Positions 11,316 to 44,638 of a stretch of DNA of 64,000 bases are shown here, in pieces. Within the stretch, counting starts at the first letter, position 1, and the number at the start of each line of letters is the position of its first letter. The stretch is from an uncultured Hormoscilla sp. (GTDB lineage Bacteria > Cyanobacteriota > Cyanobacteriia > Cyanobacteriales > Desertifilaceae), in contig OZ001293.3 in assembly GCA_963921275.4 (NCBI GenBank), positions 4,832,001 to 4,896,000 of the forward strand, written 5' to 3'. The notes beneath the pieces were generated by a model, which was not told the DNA's origin, ran no database searches, and worked only from the letters and a program-made list of their open reading frames with translations. The position numbers and the translations under genes are program-made.

Positions 11316-13746
11316 ATGACCATCGGTATCATCCTGATTGTCTCGATTTTGCTCTTAGGCGGTGTCCTGGCGACACTGGGAGATCGCATTGGCACAAAAG
11401 TGGGCAAGGCGCGGTTGTCTCTGTTCAAGCTGCGTCCCCGGAAAACCGCAACTCTGGTGACGATCGCCACGGGAGTGATGATTGCAGGCACCACCCTGGG
11501 CATCTTATTTGCCACTAGCGAGCCCTTACGGCGAGGCATATTTGCATACGATCGAACCCTCAAAAAACTCAGAGCCGCCCGCCGAGAATTAAAAGAAACT
11601 AGAGTCCAAAAGATTCATGTAGAGACCCAGTTAGCCCAAGCGAGAGATCGGCACGCAGCGGCCCAACAACATTTAGATGAAATTAATCAGTCTTTGCAGG
11701 CAGCACTGGCACAACAAGGGGTTACGGAAGTGAAACTGGCGCAAACTCAAAACCAACTGGGTCAAGTCACAGCCAATTTTGAGCAAACCCAAAGCCAACT
11801 TCAGGATGTCCTGAGCAAGTTTAAGCAAGCTCATGCTCAACTGTCAAGGGTTTCTGGGCAAGTGGAAACCCTAGGGGCTGAAATCACTCAACTGCAAAGG
11901 GAACGTCAAGAATTGATCGGACAGCGGGATGAGGTGAAACGGCAAATTGCTGGATGGGGTCGAGCCGGGAATCGCTTCCCGACCCTCCCTTGAGGAACCG
12001 GACTTGCGATTTTCACCGCATCCGGCTACTGGGTACTAGGCCCTTTTCATAGGTAGACTTAATAGGAATTACTTCCGTTAGCCCTTGCCGCCTGTCTTTT
12101 CTTCCCTTTCCTGGTTTAGCGAGTGGTTGTTCTGATAACCGTTAGTATCACCATTTTCAAGTCAGTTTTACCAGTTATCCATACCTTATCCTCCACTTGC
12201 GTTTCGGATTAGTTCCGTGGCTTTTTAGGATTACTCATTCCAGCAGCTTCCTAGTATCACCGACCCACGTCAGCGCTGGCTACCCAGCATCATCTACATT
12301 ACTGTAGATGTTATCCCAGGAATTACCCCGGGCATTCGCTTCTTGGGCCATCCCTCCCCCCGTGGCTTGCGCTTAACATCTAACTTGTCCTGATGGACAG
12401 CACACGAGAGGTTACTTCGTTCCCTAACAACATTTCGCGATACCTTTAGGTCCACACTATACCCCGGGAGCTATTTGAGTACTATATTAGCCAGAGTCTA
12501 AAACTAATACTAGCTACCATTTCCTTTTTAGGCCAGCGCATATAGCCTTATTTCGCTGGTTCCTTATAACGAGGCTTGCACATGTTTGCCTGCTCTAACC
12601 TTGGATATCTTTCCTAGCGGCGTCACCGGCTTAGGCTGCCAGTTATCCTACATTTGAGTCCTCGCTTAGCACCACGATGATGTCGCTTCGTAGCACCGAG
12701 GACCGGTGTCACCCCCGTACCTGGGGGGAGGGGAATTTAACCCCCATGCGGTCAGAGTTCCCGGCTAATGAAACCGGGCTAGCGTTCCGTGTTTGACCAC
12801 GTTAGGCTAGAACGAATCGCACAGACTCAATCAAGCTATTGCCCAGCGGGACAGGGAAATTACTCAGCTAGACAAGCATATTGCCGAGCGCGACCAGATC
12901 ATTGGCCAGCGGGACCAGATGATTGCCGATCGCGACCAGATCATTGCTCAGCTAGACGGCAAAATTGCCCAGCGGGACCAGATGATTGCCGATCGGGACG
13001 ATATCATTGCTCAGCGGGAACTGCGCCTGAAAGGATTAGAAACCGAGCAGTCCTTTCTGGAACGGCAAGTTAACATGCTGCAACAATATTATCAGGAATA
13101 TCAAGAGTTGCGTCTTGGCAATGTCGCCCTGCGACGAGGTCAAATTCTTGCTGATGGGGTCGTGCGCATCCTCTCACCTACGGCAGCTAAAGACGCCGTA
13201 GACCACCTGTTGCGCCAAGCTAACAAAGCTGCTATCTCTCAGGTGACTTACCCCCATGGCAATGCCGCTGTTGACGAACAGGTGATTCAAATTACTCAAG
13301 CCGAAGTTGAGCAATTGACTAATAGAATTAGTAATGGAAAAAACTATGTGGTGCGCATTCTTTCAGCGGGTAACTACGTGCGCGGAGAGAATGCTGTGCG
13401 CGTCTTTGCCGATATAGCACTTAATAAAATCGTATTTCTGACTGGCGAAGTGGTGGCTTTCGGTTCTGTTGATGCTTCGAGAATGAGTGAAGATGAAATC
13501 CTGCAACGCCTAGATTTGCTGATGGCATCTTCTAAATTCCGCGCCCGCCGTGCTGGTATTCTAGGTACTACCATCCAAATTACCGATGGCAGCCCTAAAA
13601 CTCTGGTACAGTTTATTGAACGGCTGAATGATTATCAAAAACTACTGGAAATTCAAGCTGTGGCAGCAGAAGTGACCTATACCGCTGGACCCCTGAAAAT
13701 CGAACTTGTCGCTATTAGAGATGGCGAAGTCCTGTTTCGTACTTAA
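11316..13746 (+). pseudogene. DUF3084 membrane-anchored coiled-coil protein interrupted by an antisense group II intron
   Basis: GDRIGTKVGKARLSLFKLRPRKTA N-terminus; removing 11952-12822 restores a 519-aa frame (KRQIA|RLNQAIAQRD). Confidence 0.9.
11952..12822 (-). mobile_element. ORF-less group II intron, 871 nt (copy A1)
   Basis: 5' GTGCG; domain V GTAGCCGGATGCGGTGAAAATCGCAAGTCCGGTTC with the AGC triad; domain VI with bulged A; EBS1 AGACTC pairs with exon GAGTCT; no RT ORF. Confidence 0.93.
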
Positions 13747-13842
13747 ACTAACATGGCTGCGCCACGCTGCGCGAATGGCTGCGCCACGCTGCGCGAACAG
13801 AAACCTGGTTTATAGATATCTTGAATAATTTATACCCGCTAT

Positions 13843-14277
13843 ATGCTCAATAATTATCCTCCAACTTCCCCCCATCAATCAGTGATTTTGGGTTTCGATC
13901 CAGGATGCGATAAGTGCGGGATCGCTGTCATGGCAGACGACGCCCAAGTCTATTATCATCAAGTTGTCCCCGCTGCTGAGGCGATCGCCACTATAGATCG
14001 CCTGCTTCATCAATATCCCGTCTCTTTGCTAGTAATGGGCGATCGCACTACTGCTAAAGCTTGGCAACAGCAGATTAACCGCAGTTTATCCCAACCACCC
14101 CCGATCGTTACTGTCGATGAGCACTACAGTAGTCTGGAGGCACGCGATCGCTACAGGCAAATTTACCCTCCCAAAGGACTAAATCGCTTAATTCCCCAAG
14201 GCATGCGGCAACCACCCCGTCCCGTCGATGATATTGTTGCTATTATTTTAATTGAACGGTACATTGCTAATCGTTAG
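13843..14277 (+). CDS. yqgF: YqgF/RuvX-family RNase H-fold nuclease
   Basis: ILGFDPG.DKCGIA, VDEHYSSLEAR, PVDDIVAIIL. Confidence 0.85.
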   Translation: MLNNYPPTSPHQSVILGFDPGCDKCGIAVMADDAQVYYHQVVPAAEAIATIDRLLHQYPVSLLVMGDRTTAKAWQQQINRSLSQPPPIVTVDEHYSSLEARDRYRQIYPPKGLNRLIPQGMRQPPRPVDDIVAIILIERYIANR

Positions 14278-14315
14278 TTGTTAGTTGTTAGTTGTTCATC
14301 GACCATTCTCCATTC

Positions 14316-14579
14316 TCAAATTTGAGCGCGGATAGTGAAAGAATAATCTCTTCCAGGTTCAAGCTGATAATCCTGCTGTTCTAAAAACCGAGATAAAGGT
14401 TCTTGAATTAAAGCACGTCCCAAAGAAGGCTTAACATACAATTCTCCCCTGCTAAAATGCCACTGAAACTCCCACTGATAGGACTCAGCTATCACTTCGC
14501 CTTCCATTTTTCCTTGCATCCAGGATTGTGATAAGACCCGGACATAAGCGGTGGTTTCCGGTAAACGTCGAGAACTCAT
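14316..14579 (-). CDS. DUF3146 family protein
   Basis: LPETTAYVRV..QSW..G..EGEV, PSLGRALIQEPL.RFLEQ.DYQLEPG. Confidence 0.85.
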   Translation of the reverse strand: MSSRRLPETTAYVRVLSQSWMQGKMEGEVIAESYQWEFQWHFSRGELYVKPSLGRALIQEPLSRFLEQQDYQLEPGRDYSFTIRAQI

Positions 14580-14667
14580 TTAATCTTCTCTGCGTACACA
14601 TTGCAGTATTTCCTGGTGCTGCATCTCCTGGCCGCGCTAATCGTACATGCATAGGAGATGCAGCGCG

Positions 14668-15333: not shown

Positions 15334-15469
15334 TTATCCTGGTTCATTCGATGTCCTCCGACAGGGCGAGCGGTCTCCTGGGGCGAGGTATGTCCCGGGA
15401 GCGCTAATCGCACAAAAGGGGACATACCTCGCGCTAATCGCACAAAAGGGGAGACACGCGCTAGTCGCA

Positions 15470-23065: not shown

Positions 23066-23749
23066 AAGAAAATGGAATTGTTAAATAGCGCCCTCAAAGA
23101 TCGCCAAGCAGGCAGTTAAAGCAGGAAATGCTACCGGCGTATAGGGGAGAGCTAAAAGTTTCGCTCAATGGAGCCAGGGAACAAAGTCTCTGTGATTTCA
23201 TTGTAGTTAATTGAAGTTTACCAGGATGGGGAAAACCTCAATGCCCCGAGCCTGCCCGCTGCGCTGGGGCGCGCAGCGCATGCGATGCCTTCCGGGTTTT
23301 CGCCGTGCGTTCAGAAGGCATCGTAGGTTGCCTGCGTTGCATCCTGATTTTTCCGGAACGGTAGGCATCGAAAGGGCGATCTAATTGAAACCTCCGACCC
23401 TCTACCTCCTACTTTGGCAATCTTCTGAGAGATTCGCCGCCCCTAAAGCGTCTTAGATTTGTCTGCATTGCGCCGATAATCCCCCGGCTTTGCACAATCA
23501 CGGGATGATAGGCATATTTGCAAAAGCTTGAAATCTAGACTATAAGAGACTGGCGTTGCATAATCACGGGATGATGAGTCTCTTTGCATAAGTTTTAAAC
23601 GTATACTATAAGCCACTTTTAGTTATGTGCAAACAATGGCATCATCCTGAGATTGCCTCATTTATACTCTGGCAATTACATGCACCCGTGTAGTTCCCAT
23701 GTCGATACCCTCTCTGGTTCTGTACCAATCTAGCTAGCACAGGTTCATC

Positions 23750-24003
23750 ATTGACTAAAGCAGGCCAAATCCAGGGCCATGTTTTGCCGATCTAGGGCCA
23801 TTTTTTGCCGATTCAAGGCCATATTTGGGCTAAACTGAATTTGGGATGAGCGATTTAAGGCTAGCTATTGGTATAAAAACATGTATTAGCAAAAATGGGT
23901 CGAGTTTAATATAAACATTGCCATGTATTAGCAAAAATGGGCCTAGTTTTGGCTAAAATAAATTTGGTTAGTTCGACATACTAAAAAGGCTGATAGCCTT
24001 ACC
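23750..24003. repeat. Degenerate tandem-repeat element related to the end of the 62.7-63.2 kb element
   Basis: About 21-bp GGCCAT..TTTGCCGAT units; TGTATTAGCAAAAATGGG twice; shares TAAACTGAATT and AAAAAGGCTGATAGCCTT with 63135-63182. Confidence 0.55.
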
Positions 24004-24069
24004 AGCCTTAGCTTATAAAATCTGGCGAGCTTCGGAATATTCTTAATAAGAAGTTACGGTTTATAATTT

Positions 24070-24313
24070 CCAGCTCGACCCCTAATCCTTGTATGAGTCG
24101 TAATGTACAACCGGTGAAACCAGGCGCTCTACACCAGCCCCAAAAGCGGTGAGGGCTAATGCAACGAACTGCGGGCTTATAGAGGAGACCTAAGTACATC
24201 GCAAAATAACGTTTGGGAACAAAGTAACCCTCGTGGTGCTTTCCAACAGGACCAGTCAGATGTGAAGCGCACGTGGGGAAGGATAGCCTAAGAAGCAAAT
24301 GCCTAGGGTAACT
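24070..24313 (+). mobile_element. Group II intron remnants (3' tip of one intron plus a domain I fragment of another)
   Basis: CCAGCTCGACCCCTAAT is identical to the 3' end of the 41643-44531 intron; GGGAACAAAGTAACC..., AGATGTGAAGCGCA, GATAGCCTAAGAAGCAAATGCCTAGGGTAAC align to domain I of the complete copies. Confidence 0.75.
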
Positions 24314-24518
24314 GAGTCAGATGTTCGGAGTGCATCTCAATTAGGGAACCTCATAGTAATAATATTGAAAAAGCCCAAAAAAATTTCGGTAGAACACTTA
24401 ACAGTCAGAAGGAAAATGATCTAAGGTAGTAAAAGGCGAGTAAGGCTAGGTTAGGCCCTAAGCCATAAGCTCGAAACCCAACGAGGATAATCACTAATAA
24501 AGCACATGGAGGAATCTT

Positions 24519-25570
24519 ATGGCTGAATTTCACGTTAACACAGAAGCACAACTCTCCAAAGCGATTACCGCTTCCAAGAATAACGGTAAGGCAGATACCA
24601 TTAACATCACGGGAGATATTACCCTGACGAAGTTGCTACCCCTTATTGAAGAGGACGTCCAGCTCACGATAAATGGGGGCGACAACACCATTGATGGCAA
24701 CAATCAACACCGGCTGTTCTTTGTCAGAAGCGGTGTGGTCAATTTCGATGACCTGATCTTTAGCAACGGCCGGGCCCAGGGAGGCGATGGCAACGGCGGG
24801 GCGGCAGGCCTGGGCGGTGCCATGTTTGTCTATGACGGGAAGGTCAAGGTGACCGGTAGGGCGACCTTGTGGTTTCAAACAGCAGCTTTAACAGCAATAG
24901 CGCTCGTGGTGGCACTGGCGAGAACCCCGGCAAAGGTCTGGGGGGCGCCATTTTCGCCCTGCACACCCTCACCAATAGGAACGGGAACAACCAGGGCATG
25001 CCCAACACCCTGCCGACCGTAACCCTCTTAAATGTAGGGTTCTCGGGCAATAGCGCCGCTAATAGTGATAAAAAGCCCACTCCCAAGTCAATCACCTCGG
25101 GCACAATGGTGGACAGTGACGACCTGTTCGGCAACCACATCGAACGCACGAGTAACCCCTTTATCAACCCCAACACCCTTATCGACCCCAACACCCTCCA
25201 GGACGCTCGCCTGATCGATTTCTTTCGGAAAGTGAATAAAGACATCGATCGCCTGATCGATCTCCTGACGGGGACGTACAAGGGGGAACAAGTGGCAGGT
25301 CCAGAAGAGAAAGACGTGTCCTTTCGGAAAAAGAATGAAGACATCTTCATGAACAAAGACTTTTACCAATCCAGTGTTTTCGACCATCGCATCAATGGAA
25401 AGGACGATTTCATTGATGGCACCTACAAAGGATCGGGGTTTGAGCGAAGCTTCCTGAAGACATTGTCGAACATGCGATCGGGCTCAGATTCCGCGATTAA
25501 CGACCATGAGCTTGATCCCCTTAATGGAGATGATTTCTTTGCCATGATAGAGAACAGCAGGGCGATCTAG
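24519..25570 (+). pseudogene. Gly/Asn-rich surface or secreted protein, frameshifted near 24860
   Basis: TIDGNNQHRLFFV.SG, NGRAQGG.G.GGAAGLGGAMFV, continuing in another frame as FNSNSARGG.G...GKGLGGAIF. Confidence 0.65.
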
Positions 25571-25747
25571 TTGAAAGATCCGACTTTTACCTCCTACTTA
25601 GGCAATTTTCGGCGATGGGGGCTCTTCAGGTTCCGAAAGGGAGAGTGGGAAAGTGATTTCCCACTCTCCCCCTAATCCTGTCAGTAATGAGTATAACCAC
25701 CTACAACTGACCCCCCACAACTGACCTCCCACAACTGACAACTAACA

Positions 25748-26737: not shown

Positions 26738-26746
26738 TAACAGATC

Positions 26747-30108: not shown

Positions 30109-30185
30109 GATCCCCGGGCAAAAAAAACCTGTAGCAACGGGTAACGGGGGAAAGGTAAAAGTGATTTAGGAGGACGAATTTAAGA

Positions 30186-30938
30186 ATGGCAAATGAAACG
30201 GAACTATGGCCCACAAGCACTCCCGAGGAAGTGCAGGCGACAATCCGGGCGGTTTACCGACAGGTGTTGGGAAACCCCCATGTGATGGAAAGCGAACGAC
30301 TGGTAAGTGCAGAATCGCAATTGTCCGATCGTAGCATGACGGTGCGGGAATTTGTCCGGGCAGTGGCAAAATCAGATTTCTATCGCAGCCGGTATTTTGA
30401 GAGCTGTGCGCCCTATCGGTTCGTGGAGTTGAACTTCAAGCATTTGCTGGGACGGGCCCCCCTGTCACAAGCAGAACTGTCGGAGCATATCCAGATATGC
30501 ATTAATTCGGGCTACGATGCGGAAATCGACTCCTATATGGATAGCGAAGAATATGAGGCCAGGTTTGGCGAGAATATCGTACCTTACTATGTCGGGGCGA
30601 TCAGCCAGGTAGGGCAAAAGCAAGTTGGCTATAACCGCACTCTGTCCCTGGTGAGGGGTTGGGCAGAAATTGATAGTGCCACGGAATCATCTCGTTTGGT
30701 AGAAGCAGTGGCAACTAATGGTACGACGGAAATCCCGTTGCAGCCAAGTGGTCGCATAGCAGCTTATGCAGATGCCACGGAAAAGATGTTCAAAATTGTG
30801 GTGAAGGGGGCGAAATTTGACAGTCCTCGTCGTCGCAGCACAACGGAGTATATCGTGCCGGGCAGCAGGATGTCGCCGCAAATTCAGCGGATAAATCGCA
30901 CTAGCGGCACAATTGTCAGCATCACAGAAGTGGCGTAA
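30186..30938 (+). CDS. cpeD: Phycoerythrin rod linker CpeD
   Basis: [44 protein letters not shown]. Confidence 0.88.
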   Translation: MANETELWPTSTPEEVQATIRAVYRQVLGNPHVMESERLVSAESQLSDRSMTVREFVRAVAKSDFYRSRYFESCAPYRFVELNFKHLLGRAPLSQAELSEHIQICINSGYDAEIDSYMDSEEYEARFGENIVPYYVGAISQVGQKQVGYNRTLSLVRGWAEIDSATESSRLVEAVATNGTTEIPLQPSGRIAAYADATEKMFKIVVKGAKFDSPRRRSTTEYIVPGSRMSPQIQRINRTSGTIVSITEVA

Positions 30939-31020
30939 AATTGGTGGGACTAGCAAAAGGCTCCTAGTCCCGCAGTTGGTTAAATAAAGGTCAACCTGAT
31001 TGAAGGCAGGAGAAGATTGA

Positions 31021-31788
31021 ATGTTTCTATGGGCTGTTGAAAATCCCCCGATCGAACTGCGACCGAATGCAACAGAAGAGGATTTGCAAACGGTGCTCAG
31101 AGCGGTATACAGGCAGGTGCTGGGAAATGAGCACTTGATGGACTGCGATCGCCTAACGAGTGCAGAATCATTGCTGCGGAATGGCGACATCACGGTGCGC
31201 CAATTTGTGAATGTGGTGGCGAAATCAGAACTGTATCAAGAACTGTTCTTTCACTCCAGTTATCAGTACCGTTTCATAGAACTAAACTGCAAGCATTTGT
31301 TGGGTCGTGCGCCCCGGGACCAGGCAGAAATATCTGAACATGTTCAGATATACAAGGACCAGGGGTATGAGGCGGAAATCGATTCCTATATCGACAGCGA
31401 GGATTATATTGAGAACTTTGGGGAGAACATTGTTCCCTACCCGCGCTCAATTAACAGTCAGCTGGGAATAAAAAATGTCGGCTTTAACCGGATGTTTGCC
31501 TTGCTGGGTGGTTTTGCAAGCAATGACAGTGATAAACAGGCGAAGCTCATTACCTCCTTGGGTGCTAACCTGTCTCCGGCCATCAAAGCACCGGCTGTTG
31601 GCAATGGGGCGGAATATGGCAACACGGGCAAACGCTTCCTGATTACCTATTCGACTTCAATGGCAGCGGCGCGGCTGAACAAGTTGAGCAAGGTGGAATC
31701 ATTGGTAAGCTACAGTCAAATGTCTCAGGAAGTTCAGACCATTCATAAGCGGGGTGGGAAGATCCTGAGTATATTAGAACAGGTTTAA
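31021..31788 (+). CDS. cpeE: Phycoerythrin rod linker, CpeE-like paralog 1
   Basis: [34 protein letters not shown]. Confidence 0.78.
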
Positions 31789-31860
31789 CAAGTTGGGATA
31801 AGCAGTCAGTGGCAACCGCCACTGACTACAGGAAAAATGACTAAATAAGGAGGAAGATAA

Positions 31861-32619
31861 ATGTCACTCTGGGTAACCTCAGAACCAACAGAATTAAGAC
31901 CAGATGCAACAGAAGCAGATTTGCAGACAGTGATTCGGGCAGCTTACAAACAGGTGTTGGGCAATCAGCACGTGATGGAGAGCGAAAGGCTATCAAGTGC
32001 AGAATCGATGCTGCGAAATGGCGAGGTCAGCGTGAGCGGCTTCGTGGAACTGGTGGCTAAATCGGAGTTGTATCAAGAACTGTTTTTTAACAGTTCTTCG
32101 CCCTATCGATTCGTGGAACTAAACTGCAAGCATCTGTTGGGTCGTGCGCCTAAGGACCAGGCGGAAATTTCAGAGCATGTCCAAATTTATAACTCACAGG
32201 GCTACGAGGCAGAAATAGACTCTTACCTCACTAGCGAGGAGTATCAGTCCAATTTTGGCCAGAATATCGTCCCCTACCCGCGCAACAATAGCACCCAGCT
32301 GGGGATCGCGAACGTAGGTTTTAACAGGACGTTTGCATTGATGCGGGGGGACGCCACCAGTGATAGTAGTAACCAGGCGCAGCTAATTGCTGATATCGCA
32401 GCTGACCTCCCCACAAAGATTACTGCGGCTCCTGCTGGCTCTGGCACTTATAGCAATACTGGTAAGCGCTTCCGGATCGCAGTGGCAAAGGCGGGAACGA
32501 CTCCTGTCTATAAGCAGAGCAACTTCGTCTATGAGGTGGCCTACGAGCAGATGTCTAAGAAAATTCAGAACATTCACAAAATGGGCAGCAAGATTGTCAG
32601 TATTACTGAAGTTGCCTAG
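31861..32619 (+). CDS. cpeE: Phycoerythrin rod linker, CpeE-like paralog 2
   Basis: MSLWV...ELRPDATE.DLQ, GFNRTFALMRG, NTGKRFRI. Confidence 0.82.
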   Translation: MSLWVTSEPTELRPDATEADLQTVIRAAYKQVLGNQHVMESERLSSAESMLRNGEVSVSGFVELVAKSELYQELFFNSSSPYRFVELNCKHLLGRAPKDQAEISEHVQIYNSQGYEAEIDSYLTSEEYQSNFGQNIVPYPRNNSTQLGIANVGFNRTFALMRGDATSDSSNQAQLIADIAADLPTKITAAPAGSGTYSNTGKRFRIAVAKAGTTPVYKQSNFVYEVAYEQMSKKIQNIHKMGSKIVSITEVA

Positions 32620-32738
32620 CTAGGGGTACTGGCGATCGCACCCAGCCTGCCCAAAAACAGAAGTGACGATCGCCAGTTATCACAAATCAAGCGGTCAGGT
32701 TACGTTCTCACCATTAGGTAAATTAGAGGTACTGTGAT

Positions 32739-32951
32739 ATGGCAGGAATGAATACCACTGGAACTCCCAAGAAGAGCGAGTATGACGATCGCACAGTGGA
32801 GATAGAGGTGACGGGTGTATGTCGTCAAGATGTGATGCGGACGGGTAACTTTACGATGAAAGTTACTCACAGCCGTATGGTTGAGGCAATGCAGAACATT
32901 AACAGTCTAGGTGGTAAGGTGTCCAAGGTGACGACGGCGCCATCAACATAA
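32739..32951 (+). CDS. Small CpcD-domain rod-capping linker
   Basis: IEVTGVCRQDVMRT.N....V..SRM..AMQNIN.LGGKV. Confidence 0.75.
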   Translation: MAGMNTTGTPKKSEYDDRTVEIEVTGVCRQDVMRTGNFTMKVTHSRMVEAMQNINSLGGKVSKVTTAPST

Positions 32952-33002
32952 ACAAGGAAACAGATAGGAAACTCAAAGATGGCCTGAGCTTCCTATCTGG
33001 GA

Positions 33003-33169
33003 ATGAGAGGGATGAAAATGTTAGGTGCGACAAAAGAGTCTGACTACAACAGTCGGATGGTGGAGGTAAAGTCAGAAGCAAACGCAAATCAGTTGAGGCG
33101 AAGAAAAAGAGCACGACAAAGACGAGTAAGTCGAAGAAATTGAAGCGGAAACCGAAATCCCAGAAATAA
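33003..33169 (+). pseudogene. Internally deleted second CpcD-like linker with a Lys-rich tail
   Basis: MRGMKMLGATKESDYNSRMVEV parallels the preceding gene's N-terminus; the tail KKKSTTKTSKSKKLKRKPKSQK* is in another frame and its stop overlaps the cpeS start (TAATG). Confidence 0.55.
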
Positions 33170-33702
33170 TGGATATTAGGGAATTTGTTAAACTTTCGAT
33201 CGGACGTTGGCGATCGCAGCGCAGCGGTCACAATTTGGCATTTAGCCATTTTGAAGAAGTGCGCTCGACTATTGATATAGTATCATTGGCAGCGTCGGAT
33301 AGCTCTGTAATTGAGCTGTGTAAGTCCGCAGGCATAGATCCAGCAGCAGCAATTAGTCCCTTTAGCATGAGTTGGGAGGGCCAATCAGATTGGGATGAAG
33401 AGGAAACTATCGTAGGTAACTGCGTCCTGGTGCCAATCCCCGATCGGGATAACATAAATCAGGGGAAATTACTGCGATCGCAGGGATATGCGGAAACGAT
33501 CGCCGCAGTAGGAGATTACTATTTTACCTCGGATGGCACTTTCGTCCTGCTGACAGAGTACGATCGGGCAGCAGCAGAGGAGAGAATCTGGTTTGCGACA
33601 GATAATCTCAGATTTAGAGTTTCTTCGATCAAAACCAGTGATGGAAAAGGTGTGGTAACGGCTTCCTTTGCCTCAGAGATTCGCTCGTTGTCGGGAAATT
33701 AA
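33169..33702 (+). CDS. cpeS: Phycoerythrobilin lyase CpeS
   Basis: SIGRWRSQRSGH.LAF.HFEEV.S, LLRSQGYAE, AAAEERIWF. Confidence 0.92.
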   Translation: MDIREFVKLSIGRWRSQRSGHNLAFSHFEEVRSTIDIVSLAASDSSVIELCKSAGIDPAAAISPFSMSWEGQSDWDEEETIVGNCVLVPIPDRDNINQGKLLRSQGYAETIAAVGDYYFTSDGTFVLLTEYDRAAAEERIWFATDNLRFRVSSIKTSDGKGVVTASFASEIRSLSGN

Positions 33703-33721
33703 TCAAGAGAAACGGGAAAAA

Positions 33722-34342
33722 ATGGCGATCGCAGAGCAGAACAAGAGTAGTATAGTACGGGATATGAAGGCGCTAGCCTGTTGGATGGCGGGAGATTTTA
33801 GTAACGAAAAACAAGCCTATGATAACCCGATAACCTATGCACATATTCATATATTTTGGCGACCATTACCCTATGAATTTTTTGAGGGAATCGGATTTTA
33901 TTCAGAGCAAGTTTATGACTACGATTTCTGGAGACCATACCGTCAGGGAGTCCATCGCCTAGTAGCTTTCAGCGATCGGATTTATATAGAAAACTACGGT
34001 CTGAAAGACCCGGTTCTATATGCGGGTGCAGCAAGGGAGTTAGATATTCTTAAAACGATTACGCCAGATGAGATTAAACGTCGCGAGCATTGTGGAATGA
34101 TTTTCTGGCGGGAAGGGGAAATGTTTCGAGGTGCTGTGGAGGGTAAAAATTGTTTGATAAATAGAAATGGATGGAAAACATATCTGGTGAGCGAGGTGGA
34201 ATTGACGGCAAAAACTTGGGTAAGTTTAGATAAGGGTATGGATGTGAATACCCACGAGCAAGTATGGGGCTCGAAGGCGGGACCGTTGAGATTTGAGAAA
34301 CGGCAAAGTTTTGCTGAAGAAGTACCGCCGATGTATGAATAA
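33722..34342 (+). CDS. cpeT: Bilin lyase CpeT
   Basis: MAGDFSN..QA..NP..YAHI, YSEQ.YDY..W.PYRQ, VWGS..GP..F. Confidence 0.92.
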   Translation: MAIAEQNKSSIVRDMKALACWMAGDFSNEKQAYDNPITYAHIHIFWRPLPYEFFEGIGFYSEQVYDYDFWRPYRQGVHRLVAFSDRIYIENYGLKDPVLYAGAARELDILKTITPDEIKRREHCGMIFWREGEMFRGAVEGKNCLINRNGWKTYLVSEVELTAKTWVSLDKGMDVNTHEQVWGSKAGPLRFEKRQSFAEEVPPMYE

Positions 34343-34384
34343 CTGTACTGTAATCTATTAGCAGCAAATGAGTGGAAGGGAGAA

Positions 34385-34690
34385 ATGTTGCCGCCACAAG
34401 CAGAAAAAAAGATGCAAGCGTGGATCCGCAGTAGACATCTGATCAGTTCGGGAAACTTTTTTATCTTGGAAACGGTAGAATATCCAACAGTAGAAAGATT
34501 TACAGAATGCGTAGAGAGTTTAGGAGGAACTTTAATAACAGTCCAACCAATAGACAAAATATGGATAGGGGATCATAGAAAAGTGATTTTATATCAAGCG
34601 AAAGCGAGTTTACATACACCCTATCACGATTTAAAACAATACTGGTTCAAATATGGTGGTTTGAAGACAAGATTTGATCGACGTTGTTAA
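34385..34690 (+). CDS. cpeR: Phycoerythrin regulator CpeR
   Basis: MLPP.A.KKMQ.WIRSRHLI.SGNFFI.ET; follows cpeST. Confidence 0.92.
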   Translation: MLPPQAEKKMQAWIRSRHLISSGNFFILETVEYPTVERFTECVESLGGTLITVQPIDKIWIGDHRKVILYQAKASLHTPYHDLKQYWFKYGGLKTRFDRRC

Positions 34691-34709
34691 CAGAGAAAGG
34701 GAGAGAAAA

Positions 34710-36500
34710 ATGATCGGCAGTTTTATTAACCCAGTAATAACTAAAGCATCGGCATTAGGTGTCAGCTTGTTTGAAGAGACAGACACGATCGAGTTGTGGC
34801 AGTCCAGTTCAGAAGCAGAAGTGGAGACGGTGATTCGGGCAGTATACAGGCAAGTGTTGGGGAATGCTCATGTGATGGAGAGCGAGAGGTTAACCATCCC
34901 GGAATCCCATCTGCGCTCGGGGGAAATAAGCGTCAGAGATTTTGTGCGGGAAGTGGCGCTATCGGAAATGTATCGCTCCCGGTTTTACGACAACTGTCCC
35001 CGCTACCGCTCGATCGAGTTAAATTTCAAGCATTTGCTGGGTCGGGCCCCGGAAAGCTATGAGGAGATGTGCACTCATAGCAACATTTGGGATCGAGGCG
35101 GTTGGCAGGCAGAGATAGATTCCTATGTAGATAGTGAGGAATATCACGAGGCATTTGGGGAAAACAGAGTGCCGTTTTACCGGGGTTATAAAACCCAGAC
35201 AGGCAAGCGGGTAGTTGGGTTTACCCATATATTCCAACTCTTGCGCGGTGCTTCTAGCAGCGATAAATCCAGTTTTGTGGGGACAAGGTCAAGGCTAAAT
35301 CGGGCGATCGTCACCAATAATCCCAGCGTGATGATTCCCCTTTCATCCTCCTATGGGCGACCGACTGATGTCAATAAACTACTAGCTGATGTCCTAAAGC
35401 TGAAGCAACCAGCAATCGCGCCACCAACAAGTCGGCCAAAAATCCTATCAGCGGAGGTAGAAATAGCTCAATCCTGGCAAGGTCAATATCAATCATGGGA
35501 AGATCCAGAGCCAGTAGAGCTATGGCCAGGCCGATCGGAAACGGAAGTAGAAACGGTGATTCGGGCGGTATACAGGCAAGTTTTGGGGAATGCCCACGTG
35601 ATGGAGAGTGAACGACTCACAGTCCCGGAATCACAGATAAAACTTGGGGAAATCAGCGTCCGTGAATTTGTCCGTCAGGTGGCCAAATCGGAGTTGTACA
35701 GGTCGCGGTTCTTCGACAACTGCCCCCGCTACCGGGCGATCGAGTTAAATTTCAAGCATCTGCTGGGTCGTGCCCCTGATGACTACTCGGAGACTTTCTA
35801 TCACAGTAGCGTGCTGGATGCAGGCGGTTTTGAGGCGGAGATAGACTCTTATATCGATAGCGACGAGTACCAGGAAGCTTTTGGGGAAAACGTAGTACCG
35901 TTTTACCGAGGCTACAAAACCCAGACTGGCAAAAGGCTGCTTGGGTTTACCAACATGTTCCAACTATTGCCCAGCGTTTCGACTAGCGATAAAGCGGGTT
36001 TATCAGGAAATCTACCTCGGCTGAATCGGGCCCTGATTTACAATCATCCTACAGGCAAAGCCCCTGTCACGGATATCAATGCCTTGCTGGCTGAGGTGCT
36101 CAAGCCGAAGATCCAGCCCCAAGAAATTATCTCCAAAGCAGAACTGGCTCGCAAGCAAGCCTATCAAGCTTTGCAAAGCCAGTGTTCCGAACAAGAAACT
36201 GTGATTGCGACTTTACAACAACAGTTGGCAGAATTACGGGCAACTGCTACCATCGGAGCAGCCCAATTAAATAAGTGGCAGTCTTATAGCCCTTACTCCA
36301 ATGGCGGCACTGGTTTGACCATAGGCCGACAACCGACGGCAACCGCCGCCCTACCAGAAAGTTATGAGGCTTTGCAACAGCAGTATGCAGTAGGGGAAGA
36401 GACGATCGCCTCTTTACGGGAGCAAATCTCAGACCAGCAGCGCTTGGCCGCGATCGGATCGGCGCGATTGAATAAATGGCGCACCCGTTCTTTTTCCTAG
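34710..36500 (+). CDS. Two-domain phycobilisome linker with a C-terminal coiled-coil extension
   Basis: Two tandem [21 protein letters not shown]...FYRGYKTQTG domains, then two modules ending IGAAQLNKW and IGSARLNKWR. Confidence 0.88.
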   Translation: MIGSFINPVITKASALGVSLFEETDTIELWQSSSEAEVETVIRAVYRQVLGNAHVMESERLTIPESHLRSGEISVRDFVREVALSEMYRSRFYDNCPRYRSIELNFKHLLGRAPESYEEMCTHSNIWDRGGWQAEIDSYVDSEEYHEAFGENRVPFYRGYKTQTGKRVVGFTHIFQLLRGASSSDKSSFVGTRSRLNRAIVTNNPSVMIPLSSSYGRPTDVNKLLADVLKLKQPAIAPPTSRPKILSAEVEIAQSWQGQYQSWEDPEPVELWPGRSETEVETVIRAVYRQVLGNAHVMESERLTVPESQIKLGEISVREFVRQVAKSELYRSRFFDNCPRYRAIELNFKHLLGRAPDDYSETFYHSSVLDAGGFEAEIDSYIDSDEYQEAFGENVVPFYRGYKTQTGKRLLGFTNMFQLLPSVSTSDKAGLSGNLPRLNRALIYNHPTGKAPVTDINALLAEVLKPKIQPQEIISKAELARKQAYQALQSQCSEQETVIATLQQQLAELRATATIGAAQLNKWQSYSPYSNGGTGLTIGRQPTATAALPESYEALQQQYAVGEETIASLREQISDQQRLAAIGSARLNKWRTRSFS

Positions 36501-36720
36501 ATCGGCCTTTTACGAGCGCGGTCAGCAGTTTTTCCGCTGACCGCTAAGCAAAAATATATTTGGGAATGATACTAATAGGTAGTCCGAAGTCCGCCCAGAA
36601 GATGCTAGGCAGAGCGATCGCCCGATATGGGGAAAAGAAACTTGATGGTAGTACCCTAAGTCCTCAAAATAAGACTAGCATGGAGTTGGAGGGATCTGTA
36701 GTCACAATTAAGTAAGTGTA

Positions 36721-37553
<833 letters not shown>

Positions 37554-37646
37554 TAGGAGTAGAAGACAGATGTAAGGGGAAAAGCAGAAAGGGACTTGTA
37601 GCAAGGGCTTAGATAGGGTATACTAAAAAAAATAACAGAATTAGAG

Positions 37647-40508
37647 GTGGAGTTAATGGCAAAGAAAAGCCGTGGAGTTCCGGCGTTATATTCAGAGATA
37701 AAGGTCAAGCTGGGGATTTCAATGACGCCCACAGGCAGAAAGTTGCTGACTAAGATGGCCGAAAAGGCGGATTTATCCCGCTCGGAAATGGTAGAGCAGA
37801 TCGCAAGAGGGTGTATCTCGATCGAGAGTGCCTCGGCAAAAATGGCGATAATGCTAAAGGAGGCGGTGGAAAATCAAGCTCTAACAGATGCAGAAATAGA
37901 ACAGCTGAGCACGAAGTTTCAGGTGGTCGATAGTGAATTGTCCAGTCCAGTGGAGGATGAGACAGGGTCTGAGGTGCAGTTAGAAAGTTCTCAAGCACAA
38001 GCACAGTTGATTGTAGATTTACAACAACAGATAAAGGAGTTGGAAGCAGCTCTAGCAACTAAGAACGAGGAGATGGTGCCGTTAGAAAATTATGAATCAT
38101 TGCGGCAAGAGTCGGCAGCACAAGCAACTCAGATAGAGGAGTTAGAAACAAAGCTAGCAGAATGGTCCGATCGGGTGCCGCGCTCAGAATATGAAACATT
38201 GCAGCAGGATTCGGCAGCGCAAGCAAGTCAGATAGAAGAGTTGCACTCCAGGATAGAGAAATTGTCGTCTCGGGTACCGCACTCAGAATATGAGTCATTG
38301 CAGGAGTCGTCAGCAGCATTATCAGAGGAGATCGCCTCCTTGAAAGCACAGCTTCAGGCATCTGAGGAGATAATGGCCAGTCAGAAAGAGCGGACAGTGC
38401 CGTTAGAGGAATATGAGTCATTGCAGCAGGACTCGGCAGCACAAGCAAGTCAGATAGAAGAGTTACACTCCAGGATAGAGGAATTGTCATCTCGGGTGCC
38501 AGTCTCAGAATATGAGTCATTGCAGGAGTCGTTAGCAGCATTATCAGAGGAGATCGCCTCCCTGAAAGCACAGCTTCAGGCATCCGAGGAGATGATGGCC
38601 TCTCAGAAAGAGCGGACAGTGCCGTTAGAGGAATATGAGTCATTGCAGCAGGACTCGGAAGCACAAGGGGAGGAGATAGCAGCATTAAAAGCACAGATAG
38701 GCCAGTTGGAAAAGAATGTGCCAGTCTCAGAATATGAGTCATTGCAGCAGGACTCGGCAGCGCAAGCAAGTCAGATAGAAGAGTTGCACTCCAGGATAGA
38801 GGAATTGTCGTCTCGGGTACCGCACTCAGAATATGAGTCATTGCAGGAGTCGTCAGCAGCATTATCAGAGGAGATCGCCTCCTTGAAAGCACAGCTTCAG
38901 GCATCTGAGGAGATAATGGCCAGTCAGAAAGAGCGGACAGTGCCGTTAGAGGAATATGAGTCATTGCAGCAGGACTCGGCAGCACAAGCAAGTCAGATAG
39001 AAGAGTTACACTCCAGGATAGAGGAATTGTCATCTCGGGTGCCAGTCTCAGAATATGAGTCATTGCAGGAGTCGTTAGCAGCATTATCAGAGGAGATCGC
39101 CTCCCTGAAAGCACAGCTTCAGGCATCCGAGGAGATGATGGCCTCTCAGAAAGAGCGGACAGTGCCGTTAGAGGAATATGAGTCATTGCAGCAGGACTCG
39201 GAAGCACAAGGGGAGGAGATAGCAGCATTAAAAGCACAGATAGGCCAGTTGGAAAAGAATGTGCCAGTCTCAGAATATGAGTCATTGCAGGAGTCGTCAG
39301 CAGCACTATCAGAGGAGATCGCCTCCTTGAAAGCACAGCTTCAGGCATCTGAGGAGATAATGGCCAGTCAGAAAGAGCGGACAGTGCCGTTAGAGGAATA
39401 TGAGTCATTGCAGCAGGACTCGGCAGCACAAGCAAGTCAGATAGAAGAGTTGCACTCCAGGATAGAGGAATTGTCATCTCGGGTGCCAGTCTCAGAATAT
39501 GAGTCATTGCAGGAGTCGTCAGCAGCACTATCAGAGGAGATCGCCTCCCTGAAAGCACAGCTTCAGGCATCCGAGGAGATGATGGCCTCTCAGAAAGAGC
39601 GGACAGTGCCGTTAGAGGAATATGAGTCATTGCAGCAGGACTCCGCAGCACAAGCAAAGGTGGTAGCTTCCTTAGAACAACAGATAACGGAGTTGCAACA
39701 TCGGGTGCCATTAGAGCAATATGAATCAGTGCGGCAGGACTCGGCAGCACAAGCAAAGGTGGTGGCAGAGTTACAACAACAGCTGAGTGAGTTGCAAGAA
39801 CATAGTATGGAAACAGAGAATGGGGAGACTGTGTCGTTACAGAGATATGAATCAGTCCGGCAAGAGTCGGAAGCAAAAGCAAAGGTGGTGGCCTCCTTAC
39901 AAAAGCAGATTAAGGAGTTGCTGCAAGAGCGCGTGCCGTTATCTACATATGAACATGTGCGACAAAAAGTTGCAGAACAAGCAACTCAGATCGCCCGATT
40001 AGAAAAAAAGATTAGTCAATATCGGGTGCCCTTAAACAATTATGAAGCGTTGCACCAGGAGTCCCGATCGCAAGCAAGTCAGATGGCCCAGTTACAACAA
40101 CAGATCCGCGAGCTGCAAGGACGGGTGCCATTAGAAAAATATGAAAGTTTGCGGCAACAGTCAGAACAAAAAGAACGGGCGATCGCCGCAATGCAACAAC
40201 AGATTCGGTTATTGTCAGATCGGGTGCCCAAAGAAGAATATGAATCTTTGTGGCAGTCTACCGTTCCGGAAAAATCGGAAAAACAAGCCAAGGTGGTGGC
40301 GCAACTGCAACAACAGCTTAACGGTTTGCAAGGTAATACAACTCAGACCAATGGAAATGGGCCGTTAGAGAGTTACGCATCTTTGCTACAGCAGTCTCAA
40401 GAACAGGCAAAGTTGATTGCCACCCTACAGCAAAAAGTTGCCGAGTTGCAGTCAACTTCCAGAATTGGAGAAGCTCATTTAAATAAGTGGCGTCAGCGCA
40501 ATTTTTAG
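37647..40508 (+). CDS. Ribbon-helix-helix-like N-terminus + about 22 coiled-coil repeats + IGEAHLNKWR C-terminus
   Basis: LGISMTPTGRKLLTKMAEKADLSRSEMVEQIAR (CopG/RHH-like); 33- and 41-aa VPxxxYESL modules; 543-bp internal duplication. Confidence 0.8.
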   Translation: MELMAKKSRGVPALYSEIKVKLGISMTPTGRKLLTKMAEKADLSRSEMVEQIARGCISIESASAKMAIMLKEAVENQALTDAEIEQLSTKFQVVDSELSSPVEDETGSEVQLESSQAQAQLIVDLQQQIKELEAALATKNEEMVPLENYESLRQESAAQATQIEELETKLAEWSDRVPRSEYETLQQDSAAQASQIEELHSRIEKLSSRVPHSEYESLQESSAALSEEIASLKAQLQASEEIMASQKERTVPLEEYESLQQDSAAQASQIEELHSRIEELSSRVPVSEYESLQESLAALSEEIASLKAQLQASEEMMASQKERTVPLEEYESLQQDSEAQGEEIAALKAQIGQLEKNVPVSEYESLQQDSAAQASQIEELHSRIEELSSRVPHSEYESLQESSAALSEEIASLKAQLQASEEIMASQKERTVPLEEYESLQQDSAAQASQIEELHSRIEELSSRVPVSEYESLQESLAALSEEIASLKAQLQASEEMMASQKERTVPLEEYESLQQDSEAQGEEIAALKAQIGQLEKNVPVSEYESLQESSAALSEEIASLKAQLQASEEIMASQKERTVPLEEYESLQQDSAAQASQIEELHSRIEELSSRVPVSEYESLQESSAALSEEIASLKAQLQASEEMMASQKERTVPLEEYESLQQDSAAQAKVVASLEQQITELQHRVPLEQYESVRQDSAAQAKVVAELQQQLSELQEHSMETENGETVSLQRYESVRQESEAKAKVVASLQKQIKELLQERVPLSTYEHVRQKVAEQATQIARLEKKISQYRVPLNNYEALHQESRSQASQMAQLQQQIRELQGRVPLEKYESLRQQSEQKERAIAAMQQQIRLLSDRVPKEEYESLWQSTVPEKSEKQAKVVAQLQQQLNGLQGNTTQTNGNGPLESYASLLQQSQEQAKLIATLQQKVAELQSTSRIGEAHLNKWRQRNF

Positions 40509-40794: not shown

Positions 40795-40798
40795 AGGT

Positions 40799-41413: not shown

Positions 41414-41949
41414 ATTATTCTGAGGTAATTTGTGAATTTATCGTTCCAGAGTCATCGAAAACTCGCAAGAACTCCAGAGATTCGAGCGGGGAAGACAACC
41501 AGATTGTCAGCATTAGCGACTTTGGCTGAGGGAACCCAATCGCGCTTCTACCTGTTGCATGCTGTATACCACTTCTCCAATATTCTGCGTCGGAGCCAAC
41601 TGACCTTGGGCATTCATAAAACGCTAAGATGCCATGAGTTCCATTAGGGGTCGAGCTGGGAATCGCTTCCCAACCCTCCCTTTCGAACCGTGCATGCGGT
41701 TTTCATCGCACACGGCTACTGGTTAGTTGGACCTTGTCATTGGCAGGATTACTGGGGATTGCTCCCTTTGTCCCTCTTCTTATGCAGTTTTTCCCCTTTA
41801 TGGTAGTCGATAGGACTGTTTCGTATCTAGCTCCGGAAGGTTCGCGGGGGGTATCCAGGAAACCACTTATACCGCTCTTTGCTAACATTGCCCCTGTCTC
41901 GTCATTAGGGGACTTTTCAAGTTTTACCCGGCTAGAGTTTTAGTCCATA

Positions 41950-42961
41950 ACTCAAGTTGCGACCTATAAAAATTGGATACAAAAAGCTATGATAAAGAGA
42001 ATTATTTTCAACTCTAATCCCTTAGATGTAACAGCATGAATTGACTTGGGAAACAAATTTGTGATTCGACTAAAACAGGTTTCAACTTGTTTTCTTGTTA
42101 CTTTTTGTATATATTCAAAACAAGAATATTCTTTTCTTTTTGAGTTCTTTTTTCGCAAAGGTTTTAACATTATACTTGACGACTCTTTTAGTAAATCCTC
42201 TAATTGATAATCATTATAAGCTTTATCTCCATAAACTATTGAATTTGATGGTAAGTCAAAGCCAAAAGATTGCAAAACTTTAAAATCATTATAACTACCA
42301 GGATCTAGATAAAATTCTATTGGCTTTCCATTTTTGTTTACCAACATATGAACTCTTAATCCATAAAAATAACGTTTTTTACTGGCAATATACCCTCGAT
42401 ATTCTTCCTTGTTATAAATTTGGCATCTATCAATCCTAATATTATCACATACTGGCACCGGGAAACTATCAAGAATATATTCTTGACCCGGATTGAGCTC
42501 TTTAAATGTTTGAGCTATAACTTGGAAGAAAAACATCCAAATTGGTTCCTCAATATTGTGTAATCGACGATTGAACCTACTTTTACTTAACAGATTTTTT
42601 ATATACTTGTGTTGGACCATAAATTGACAAGAGCGATCGTGGTGTCCTCCGAAAAAATATGCAGCAACTAATCCGACTGTCATCACTTCGGCATTGTTCA
42701 TTTTTACTTGTGGATCTTCTTTTATATTTAACGCTTTTAGTAGCTCGTCACAAAGAACAAAAATTGTTGTAATCATATCTTCCATCATCTACATCCCCCA
42801 GCAATTAACTATTATTTTAGTACATTATAACCTATAAACAGCCAACCCGCTGTATAGCACAAAAAAAATATAATTTTGTATCAAAAGCTACGAAATATCC
42901 CAAATATCTGTAAAGTCTAAGTGGGTAATTCATATTTTTTTTAATAGGTCGCAACTTAGGT
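41950..42961 (-). mobile_element. IS982-family element, 1012 bp (transposase 41964-42788)
   Basis: TIRs ACCTAAGTTGCGACCTAT / ATAGGTCGCAACTTGAGT; 9-bp TSD TAGTCCATA; DSFPVPVC, YFYGLRVH, GDKAY, RKQVETCFS. Confidence 0.95.
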
Positions 42962-43571
42962 TAGTCCATATTACAATCTAGGATTTCTCCTGATTTTTGG
43001 TACGTATTAGGGATACTTCCACCCAAGATTTCCAACTATATCCGACCCACGTCTGCCGGTACATTCCTGCACCACTTATACAAGGAGTTACCCCTGTCCT
43101 TTGCTTCTTGGGCCATCTCTCTCCACATGGCTTACGCTTATCATCTAACTGGTCCCTATCTCCTGACCACCGGTCGATAGTCGAGTAGTTATGGACAGCA
43201 CACGTGGAGTTACTTCGTTCCCTGGTATCATTTCACGATGTTTTTAGGTCCCTGCTTTACCCCGGGAGCTACTTTGAGTGTGATGTTGGCCATATGCAAC
43301 AGCCAACACTAGCTACCATTTCCTTTTTAGGCCAGCGTGTAAGCCTTCTTCCGCTGGTTACACATAACGAGGCTTTCACAGATTCGTTTTCCTAACCATG
43401 AGCATCTTTCCTAGCGGAGTTGCCGACTTTGGGCTGTCAGCTATCCTACATTTAAGTCCTTGCTCCGCACCACGGTGATGTCACTCCGCAGCACTAAGGA
43501 CCGGTGTCACCCCCACACCTGGGGAGAGGGAATTTAACCCCCATGATGACCAGAGTTACCATATTGAGCCT

Positions 43572-44442
43572 GTGCGATTCGTTCTAGCCTAACGTGGTCA
43601 AACACGGAACGCTAGCCCGGTTTCATTAGCCGGGAACTCTGACCGCATGGGGGTTAAATTCCCCTCCCCCCAGGTACGGGGGTGACACCGGTCCTCGGTG
43701 CTACGAAGCGACATCATCGTGGTGCTAAGCGAGGACTCAAATGTAGGATAACTGGCAGCCTAAGCCGGTGACGCCGCTAGGAAAGATATCCAAGGTTAGA
43801 GCAGGCAAACATGTGCAAGCCTCGTTATAAGGAACCAGCGAAATAAGGCTATATGCGCTGGCCTAAAAAGGAAATGGTAGCTAGTATTAGTTTTAGACTC
43901 TGGCTAATATAGTACTCAAATAGCTCCCGGGGTATAGTGTGGACCTAAAGGTATCGCGAAATGTTGTTAGGGAACGAAGTAACCTCTCGTGTGCTGTCCA
44001 TCAGGACAAGTTAGATGTTAAGCGCAAGCCACGGGGGGAGGGATGGCCCAAGAAGCGAATGCCCGGGGTAATTCCTGGGATAACATCTACAGTAATGTAG
44101 ATGATGCTGGGTAGCCAGCGCTGACGTGGGTCGGTGATACTAGGAAGCTGCTGGAATGAGTAATCCTAAAAAGCCACGGAACTAATCCGAAACGCAAGTG
44201 GAGGATAAGGTATGGATAACTGGTAAAACTGACTTGAAAATGGTGATACTAACGGTTATCAGAACAACCACTCGCTAAACCAGGAAAGGGAAGAAAAGAC
44301 AGGCGGCAAGGGCTAACGGAAGTAATTCCTATTAAGTCTACCTATGAAAAGGGCCTAGTACCCAGTAGCCGGATGCGGTGAAAATCGCAAGTCCGGTTCC
44401 TCAAGGGAGGGTCGGGAAGCGATTCCCGGCTCGACCCCATCC
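43572..44442 (+). mobile_element. ORF-less group II intron, 871 nt (copy A2), nested antisense in domain I of intron C
   Basis: Same length as 11952-12822 and identical in the stretches compared; 5' exon TTGAGCCT versus TTGAGTCT for copy A1. Confidence 0.93.
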
Positions 44443-44638
44443 GATTATGATTAGTTTTGGTTCTAAACATTCAGTCCAATTTTGGCTCGGCTTTTCCGTG
44501 TTTGTACAGGTTAGGCCGAAACGAGTCGCACTGCACATTTGTGTTTAGAGTTGTTTGAGCACCTGCATCAACAATGTCAATGACCGAGTTGAGTTTATAT
44601 TCGATAGACAGCAGAACTTGTGGGGACTTCGACGAAAA

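Follow-up and report, generated by a model that had tools for sequence, protein, structure and literature searches.

A 64-kb window of the 7.03-Mb genome of an uncultured Hormoscilla sp. (C1:4832001–4896000; position numbers are those of this window unless preceded by C1) contains four complete group II introns, A1, A2, B and C, none of which carries an open reading frame (ORF) for a reverse transcriptase (RT). They probably belong to an RT-less lineage of the group IIB type that behaves as a non-autonomous retroelement dependent on enzymes supplied in trans. The direct observations that carry this reading are the identity of the ribozymes and the conservation of their fold, the absence of RT, the covariation of guide and target sequences, the dispersal of the copies over the chromosome, and the presence of B at a site that is unoccupied in a relative. 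A preliminary description of this DNA had proposed an active family of ORF-less introns mobilized by a shared intron-encoded protein (IEP); its observation was confirmed and its interpretation is supported by the data below.

Domains V and VI, detected with the Rfam model RF00029, were found above the gathering score (42.1–47 bits, cut-off 40) at each of the places where the four ribozymes had been described, and all four introns begin with GTGCGA (Table 1). A1 and A2 are identical over 871/871 nt and, as had been noticed, lie at unrelated sites: their flanks are alike only in the intron-binding site (IBS) motifs, the last 5'-exon bases being ATTGAGTCT and ATTGAGCCT, respectively. Pairwise identity among A, B and C is 72–76%. 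The ends first given for A1, A2 and C hold, but B ends at 37554 instead of 37553 and is 834 nt long; the terminal T at this position is present in 71/71 B copies, the members of this family being mostly 835 nt in length. The total span of C is 2889 nt because a 1016-nt insertion sequence (IS) element and the antisense A2 are inserted in a 997-nt intron, a reconstruction confirmed by eight uninterrupted 997-nt copies of C elsewhere in the genome. The remnants reported at 24070–24313 are also real, with a domain I (D1) piece at 24083–24246 (37 bits, E 3.7e-9) extended to 24312 by blastn; the pieces at 23072–23190 and 25625–25676 are weaker.

Table 1. Introns, guide sequences and associated features in the 64-kb window (bases in brackets are the guides of the family; RF00029 matches lie on the strand of the intron)
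Feature	Positions	Strand	RF00029 match (3' end)	EBS1	EBS2	EBS3	Description
Intron A1	11952–12822	-	11954–12030	12494–12499 (AGACTC)	12562–12566 (TAAGG)	12459 (T)	871 nt, ORF-less, group IIB-type; family A master sequence; antisense in the DUF3084 gene
A1 target motifs, 5' exon	12823–12835	-					IBS1 GAGTCT 12823–12828; IBS2 12831–12835
Host gene broken by A1	11316–13746	+					DUF3084 coiled-coil protein; 528-aa open frame with the intron removed
Degenerate intron remnants	23072–25676	+					D1 pieces 23072–23190 and 24083–24312, 3'-end piece 25625–25676 (nhmmer and blastn)
Intron B	36721–37554	+	37476–37553	37042–37047 (TGCACT)	36975–36979 (TCTAG)	37082 (T)	834 nt, ORF-less; family B; intergenic, on the strand of both neighbouring ORFs
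Intron C	41643–44531	-	41643–41720	43293–43298 (TGCATA)	43360–43364 (TGTGT)	43257 (A)	997 nt, ORF-less; in three pieces, 44531–44443, 43571–42964 and 41947–41643
IS element within C	41948–42963	-					1016 nt; 273-aa DDE transposase 41964–42788; 5-bp duplication GTCCA
Intron A2	43572–44442	+	44364–44440	43895–43900 (AGACTC)	43828–43832 (TAAGG)	43935 (T)	Same sequence as A1; antisense within C, 89 nt from the C 5' end

Profiles built from A, B and C matched 461 3' ends, 300 5' ends and 510 D1 cores in the genome, all on chromosome C1 and none on contigs C2–C7. The 388 of 510 cores scoring at least 150 bits were taken as the ORF-less lineage; 330 of them represent complete elements of ~750–1000 nt (754–997 nt), in 32 no 3' end was found within 1150 nt, in most cases because of a nested element, 19 are truncated at the 5' side and 7 lack GTGCGA. 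At 94% identity the complete copies fall into 53 sequence clusters, many consisting of a single copy. Family A has 138 copies at 120 distinct sites (61 copies identical) and family B 71 copies (at least 98% identity) at 60 distinct sites (20 identical), while family C comprises 8 complete and 2 interrupted copies and two other families have 16 and 14 copies. Intron-derived DNA amounts to 540 kb, or 7.85% of the chromosome, and RF00029 was matched 151 times genome-wide when 150 of 867 candidates were scored. The very high density ascribed to the window proved to be simply the average of the genome: since there is one ORF-less core per 17.7 kb, four cores in 64 kb are to be expected. Cumulative GC skew is weak, and the orientation of the copies shows no clear switch along the replication strands.

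The consensus fold of 49 cluster representatives contains 209 base pairs; 94.9% of its cells are paired, and 98 of the pairs show compensatory double changes. When the 3' partners were slid by 1–3 columns, 37–47% of cells were paired and 20–28 pairs showed compensatory changes, although this control is only partial, as the fold was predicted on the same alignment that was scored. With domain V–VI hairpins, the 5' GUGYG and a conserved six-domain fold (predicted), the elements have the characteristics of group II ribozymes. The Rfam models for D1–D4 were uninformative here, RF01999 giving 22 bits for A (cut-off 36) and nothing for B.

It had been stated that none of the introns encodes an RT and that no RT gene lies in the window, and the domain searches bear this out: no RT or maturase domain was matched within C1:4832001–4896000, the nearest matches being ~53 kb before and 26 kb after it, and the longest stop-to-stop frames are of 58 (A), 68 (B) and 99 aa (C). 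Pfam detected no RT domain in the ORFs between the remnants at 23072–25676. Decayed RT genes in domain IV, which would have spoken against a non-autonomous lineage, were likewise not found, as the sequence from core to next 3' end was free of RT frames for all 388 ORF-less cores, and no RT remnants were detected. A blastn comparison of domain IV revealed no similarity between ORF-less and ORF-bearing introns. The RT/maturase ORF in domain IV that characterizes autonomous mobile group II introns is thus missing. Short blastx hits (64–100%) at the ends of intron representatives were rejected as RT remnants, since they are neighbouring RT frames that enter the inserted introns.

Exon-binding sites (EBS) were located by a blind scan, in which the consensus flank positions of 13 families with at least 3 copies were compared with complementary columns of the intron alignment across families. 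The best columns formed contiguous antiparallel runs: i) EBS1, columns 401–405, with flank positions -1 to -5 (complementary in 10–12 of 12–13 families), ii) EBS2, columns 332–335, with -10 to -13 (12–13 of 12–13 families), and column 331 with -9 (9/12 families), and iii) EBS3, column 442, with +1 (13/13 families). The combination of EBS1-IBS1 and EBS2-IBS2 pairings with a distinct EBS3 for the first base of the 3' exon is the hallmark of group IIB. The EBS1/IBS1 pairs read earlier from the window copies agree with these guides, IBS1 being paired at 6/6 positions in A1, B and C and 5/6 in A2; over all guides 11/12 positions pair in A1 (IBS2 4/5), B and C, and 10/12 in A2. The family A sites have the logo AaCCTTa..GAGTCT. 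The pairing extends to the other copies genome-wide and covaries over the 13 families. At the sites of A (120), B (60) and C (8) the mean is 9.8/12, compared with 4.5–5.0/12 at 5000 random genomic sites, of which only 6–12 reach the observed median of 10. The families differ in their guides and hence in their targets. Since only ~10/12 positions need to pair, the random match rate of ~0.1–0.25% would leave tens of thousands of acceptable sites on the chromosome, an abundance that could explain a retrotransposition-like spread.

Evidence of gain came from a 6461-nt contig of a sponge metagenome run (labelled 'DNA?'), which covers 35900–36720 and continues directly with 37555–38226. It differs from the window by 16 letters and a 10-base insertion in the left flank and by 9 letters in the right flank, and it represents a relative ~2–3% diverged. 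The junction 36720/37555 contains zero duplicated bases and no scar, which fixes the ends of B (GT..CT, 834 nt) and indicates that no target duplication was made. An unoccupied site in a close relative is a sign of gain, precise loss being formally possible.

Shared flanking DNA, another observation that would have undermined mobility, was found in 18/138 A copies, because these are located inside other repeated elements. Apart from these copies, the idea that the introns were multiplied by DNA-level segmental duplication, or that each was once autonomous and carries a decayed RT gene, is a general possibility to which we give hardly any credence: introns of 754–997 nt contain no RT remnant, a single 100/100 branch sets all ORF-less D1 cores apart from the RT-bearing introns (see below), the ends of the elements are precise, and the 120 sites of A are unrelated but have guide-matched flanks.

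Nesting is common among the introns of this genome. A is inserted within A, in the same orientation and at one internal site (TATTAAGTCT/A), in five copies (C1:1325943, 4743534, 6031256, 5180266 and 6411937), a pattern that could reflect repeated insertion of A into itself or movement of the whole A::A composite. An antisense A is present in 2/10 C copies with different outer flanks, reflecting either two independent A insertions at one C site (10/12 guide match) or movement of the composite. B is found in the 5' end of ORF-bearing introns, and the ORF-less families cl9 and cl11 produce intron-in-intron nests by inserting into further ORF-less introns at a conserved motif in D1 (GGGTTAAATTCCC/TC). 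New insertions appear still to be occurring, with genes, IS elements and other introns as their targets.

The gene interrupted by A1 was found in 13/13 genomes searched and gives a single match in this genome. Its open frame measures 415–555 aa in 11/12 relatives, versus 234 aa here. As an antisense intron is not spliceable from the mRNA of its host gene, the sequence indicates that the gene has probably been inactivated by A1. An insertion was classed as genic if its site, once restored to the empty state, is spanned by an open frame of 150 aa or more, a crude measure that also counts the frames of other mobile elements. On this basis family A has 29 sense and 26 antisense insertions and 68 in no frame, and family B has 20, 4 and 41, respectively; for 1000 random positions the numbers are 273, 291 and 436. 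That A shows no preferred orientation agrees with a burst in very recent times, and the sense bias of B fits selection or transcription-linked targeting.

These data also bear on whether the copies are fossils of a lineage once mobile and now inactive. Such a state would agree with the double disruption of C in the window, the degenerate remnants at 23072–25676, the many single-copy clusters and the failure of the RNA runs to yield more than short, diverged pieces (see below). It is nevertheless improbable, since the 61 identical 871-nt copies of A and 20 identical copies of B, the B site empty in a relative ~2–3% diverged, the even division of genic A insertions between strands and the breakage of a conserved single-copy gene all point to very recent insertion.

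The genome contains 75 maturase-domain and 93 RT-domain matches. Among 23 frames of at least 550 aa with a YxDD motif, 21 are intact group II IEPs, which form ~11 subfamilies with 66–89% identity between subfamily representatives. A representative contains the Pfam domains RVT_N, RVT_1, GIIM and HNH, and among solved structures it is most similar to 6me0 chain C (E 1.5e-115), which we take to be the TeI4h RT of Thermosynechococcus elongatus. All 21 are located on one family of ~2400-nt introns, with 76–100% alignment to the reference, several containing nested ORF-less introns. One such intron has lost D1–D3 but retains an intact 572-aa frame (C1:796187–797902). As in the TeI3-type arrangement, the genome that harbours the ORF-less introns also encodes intact IEPs on related introns. 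Neither the resident introns nor the 30 congener loci sampled (see below), however, showed signs of TeI3-type descent, in which an ORF-less intron derives by deletion from an ORF-bearing sibling with a near-identical ribozyme and retains ORF remnants. In the ORF-bearing introns, as seen at locus L001, the 590-aa IEP frame (1296–3068 of the locus) extends across domain V and most of the way through domain VI (RF00029 at 2998–3074), meaning that protein-coding and catalytic RNA sequences overlap.

A maximum-likelihood tree of D1 cores separated 19 ORF-bearing from 53 ORF-less rows by a single 100/100 branch with a length of 0.27 + 1.04 (1.31) changes per column, indicating that none of the resident RT-bearing introns gave rise to the ORF-less lineage by a recent deletion. 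In four congeners, 30 IEP loci were sampled out of 108 maturase matches: the D1 pieces upstream of the sampled IEPs all score 37–70 bits, i.e. they are of the ORF-bearing type, and the single congener hit above 150 bits sits ~1 kb downstream of a maturase domain. Three of the four hold the ORF-less lineage at high copy number (219–250 first-look candidates), and the remaining one (G001) has 8 first-look candidates and one maturase match; the closest match to B in the four is at most 82%. A two-motif survey for the scaffold gave, among the matches listed, five Hormoscilla sp. loci, all ORF-less introns (5/5). A Ruminococcus record from this survey was dismissed as a chance hit, since it did not match the D1 profile. 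Outside the genus, a blast-level search with B detected no full scaffold in the genomes searched and found only the D5–D6 end or a ~40–55-nt D1 motif in 18/36 genomes.

Mobilization in trans by the resident IEPs is the most economical reading of these data and has an experimental precedent in T. elongatus (see below), but four points weigh against it: i) the helper would have to act across a wide divergence of ribozymes, that between helper and ribozyme in T. elongatus reportedly being understood as narrower, ii) no RT-bearing intron with the ORF-less scaffold was found among the 21 resident IEP introns and the 30 IEP loci of the congeners, iii) the only RNA runs found (X23 and X24) contained 0.06–0.07 of the sampled words, and X24 gave nine short, diverged pieces only, too little to bear on transcription or splicing, and iv) A1 is antisense in a conserved gene and 26/55 genic A insertions are antisense, so that many copies cannot act as spliced introns of the host gene.

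The first two of these points would be accounted for by a dedicated, possibly free-standing RT/maturase that serves the whole ORF-less lineage as a common splicing and mobility factor, in place of an IEP of the 2.4-kb introns. The intact 572-aa IEP on a copy devoid of D1–D3 might be cited in its favour, as might the presence of other RT types, e.g. the best RVT_1 match (C1:611211–611831) and a divergent 600-aa frame (C1:1776194–1776871). However, the tests made singled out no candidate, the 572-aa protein groups with the other IEPs in one clade and is ordinary among them (83–89% identity to the other cluster representatives of its group), and ordinary IEPs with relaxed specificity suffice in T. 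elongatus (PMC2882425). We therefore regard a dedicated helper as unlikely, if less so than an extinct lineage, and retain the resident IEPs as the likeliest suppliers.

Under mobilization by the resident IEPs, a copy would be transcribed and fold into the six-domain ribozyme, which would be cut out of its transcript, probably assisted by a maturase from another source. The released RNA would then reverse-splice into DNA sites picked by EBS1 (6 nt), EBS2 (5 nt) and EBS3 (1 nt), which would pair with target positions -1 to -6, -9 to -13 and +1, and the inserted RNA would be copied by an RT supplied in trans, most likely by one of the 21 intact RT-maturase-HNH proteins encoded on the 2.4-kb ORF-bearing introns. 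Family A would have spread recently in this manner to at least 120 sites. Splicing activity, the RNA intermediate and the identity of the helper are the parts of this scheme that we infer.

Introns of this kind are already known. T. elongatus contains 28 introns, 17 of them ORF-less, and trans-mobilization of ORF-less introns by 'driver' IEPs was demonstrated experimentally (Mohr, Ghanem and Lambowitz 2010, PMC2882425). All the concepts behind the preliminary interpretation were established in that species, where introns without ORFs are driven by the IEPs of others, the EBS have diverged between families, and insertions into IS elements and into other introns (twintrons) occur (PMC2882425). 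The Hormoscilla introns resemble the ORF-less TeI3 and ORF-bearing TeI4 introns (group IIB) in that they occur in a cyanobacterium in which ORF-less introns outnumber the RT-bearing ones, in that families are set by different EBS1, EBS2 and EBS3, and hence by different targets, and in their insertion into introns and IS elements. They differ from the T. elongatus introns, as these are portrayed there (PMC2882425), in five respects: 1) The number of ORF-less introns is 17 in T. elongatus, compared with 330 complete elements and 388 cores here. 2) ORF remnants flank one shared deletion in T. elongatus, whereas none were found here. 3) The ORF-less clade of Hormoscilla lies 1.31 changes per column from every resident RT-bearing ribozyme. 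4) Few introns of T. elongatus are genic, whereas 55/123 A sites here are in frames of at least 150 aa, about half of them antisense. 5) Trans-mobilization was shown experimentally in T. elongatus, whereas here it is deduced from sequence. What is extreme in the present genome is copy number.

Bacteria usually hold no more than 3 group II introns, and the highest count given in a 2022 survey is 101, for Arthrospira platensis (Miura et al. 2022, PMC8919778), also a filamentous cyanobacterium. The increase in A. platensis is due to CL-type group II introns, many of them ORF-less (PMC8919778). Compared with these 101 introns, 461 3'-end and 510 D1-core matches were found here. The copy number of the ORF-less introns is about four times the highest published count that we found, a ratio that is approximate since the counting methods differ. 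The nest of A2 in C is comparable to the twintron described for Trichodesmium (PMC4649490), in which group II introns are likewise nested in a cyanobacterium with much non-coding DNA; however, the latter is spliced sequentially and in sense orientation, whereas A2, being antisense, is not removable from the C transcript. A search that covered neither subscription journals nor supplements found no literature linking Hormoscilla with introns, term searches of two Hormoscilla genome papers found no mention of reverse transcriptases, pseudogenes or mobile elements, and nothing relevant was found on sponge symbionts together with group II introns.

Miniature inverted-repeat transposable elements (MITEs) and short interspersed nuclear elements (SINEs) are short, non-coding, high-copy elements that depend on the enzymes of other elements, and the introns described here are likewise short, non-coding and present in high copy. 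MITEs have inverted ends, generate target duplications and move as DNA. In contrast, the introns end in GTGCGA and domain VI, with neither inverted ends nor target duplication, and their targets are chosen by RNA-DNA pairing, so that the label of MITE given in the preliminary description is an analogy only. That with SINEs, which would involve an RNA intermediate and a borrowed RT, appears to fit better.

Spliceosomal introns are presumed to descend from group II introns, and it is an old question how the latter could have multiplied to high numbers and come to rely on common trans-acting machinery. With several hundred ORF-less copies, dozens of retargeted families and helpers on a separate ribozyme clade, this genome offers a much richer natural experiment than T. 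elongatus on the matching of IEPs to the ribozymes they drive, the drift of guides toward new targets and the limits of host tolerance. Somewhat short of even odds, in our estimate, is the broader proposal that the introns are an old RT-less lineage able to sustain itself, the bacterial equivalent of SINEs and left with no RT-bearing sibling, which parasitizes the proteins of a clearly different intron clade or a dedicated common factor, and which in a host-restricted, sponge-associated genus has grown to the largest bacterial intron load that we found reported and is now breaking conserved genes. If this were true, the genus Hormoscilla would be a living model of what has been proposed for early eukaryotes, a runaway spread of introns that share one machinery for splicing and mobility in trans.

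Several other features of the window are worth noting. The transposase of the IS element within C belongs to the Pfam families DDE_Tnp_1_3 and DDE_Tnp_1, and a second copy of this element, inverted and 100% identical, is located at 60786–61801. The two copies are flanked by duplications of unequal length (GTCCA and CTA), and genome blast revealed dozens more copies with ~99.4% identity. Just downstream of B, the 953-aa ORF at 37647–40508 contains 99- and 222-nt repeats, with ~17 units starting GTGCCGTTAGAG, and its product looks like a repetitive coiled-coil protein. Eleven 126-nt tandem repeats (4802–6358) were found at the 906-aa ORF at 3610–6330. The region 29236–36500 is occupied by a row of same-strand paralogous ORFs of ~250–290 aa plus one of 608 aa, with 60–79% nucleotide identity (repeat families D5, D10 and D11). 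Arrays of a 21-nt tandem repeat lie at opposite ends of the window, at 2749–3227 (at least 16 units) and 62710–62808, each near a 68-nt sequence (3330–3397 and 63036–63103) that is 87% identical between the two.

Many of the sequencing runs X4–X22, labelled as other organisms, contained ~1/4–1/3 of the sampled words of 35900–38400, approximately the share of the intron in this stretch, and a contig from X4 runs into the flank of a different B copy (C1:2476528). This pattern suggests that the organism or a near relative is present in them at low depth. In the assembly itself, the chromosome has 47.4% G+C and 4738 copies of GCGATCGC, an abundance indicative of a cyanobacterium, and contig C3 (31,420 nt) has 17.6% G+C and zero GCGATCGC; C3 is probably foreign to the cyanobacterium.

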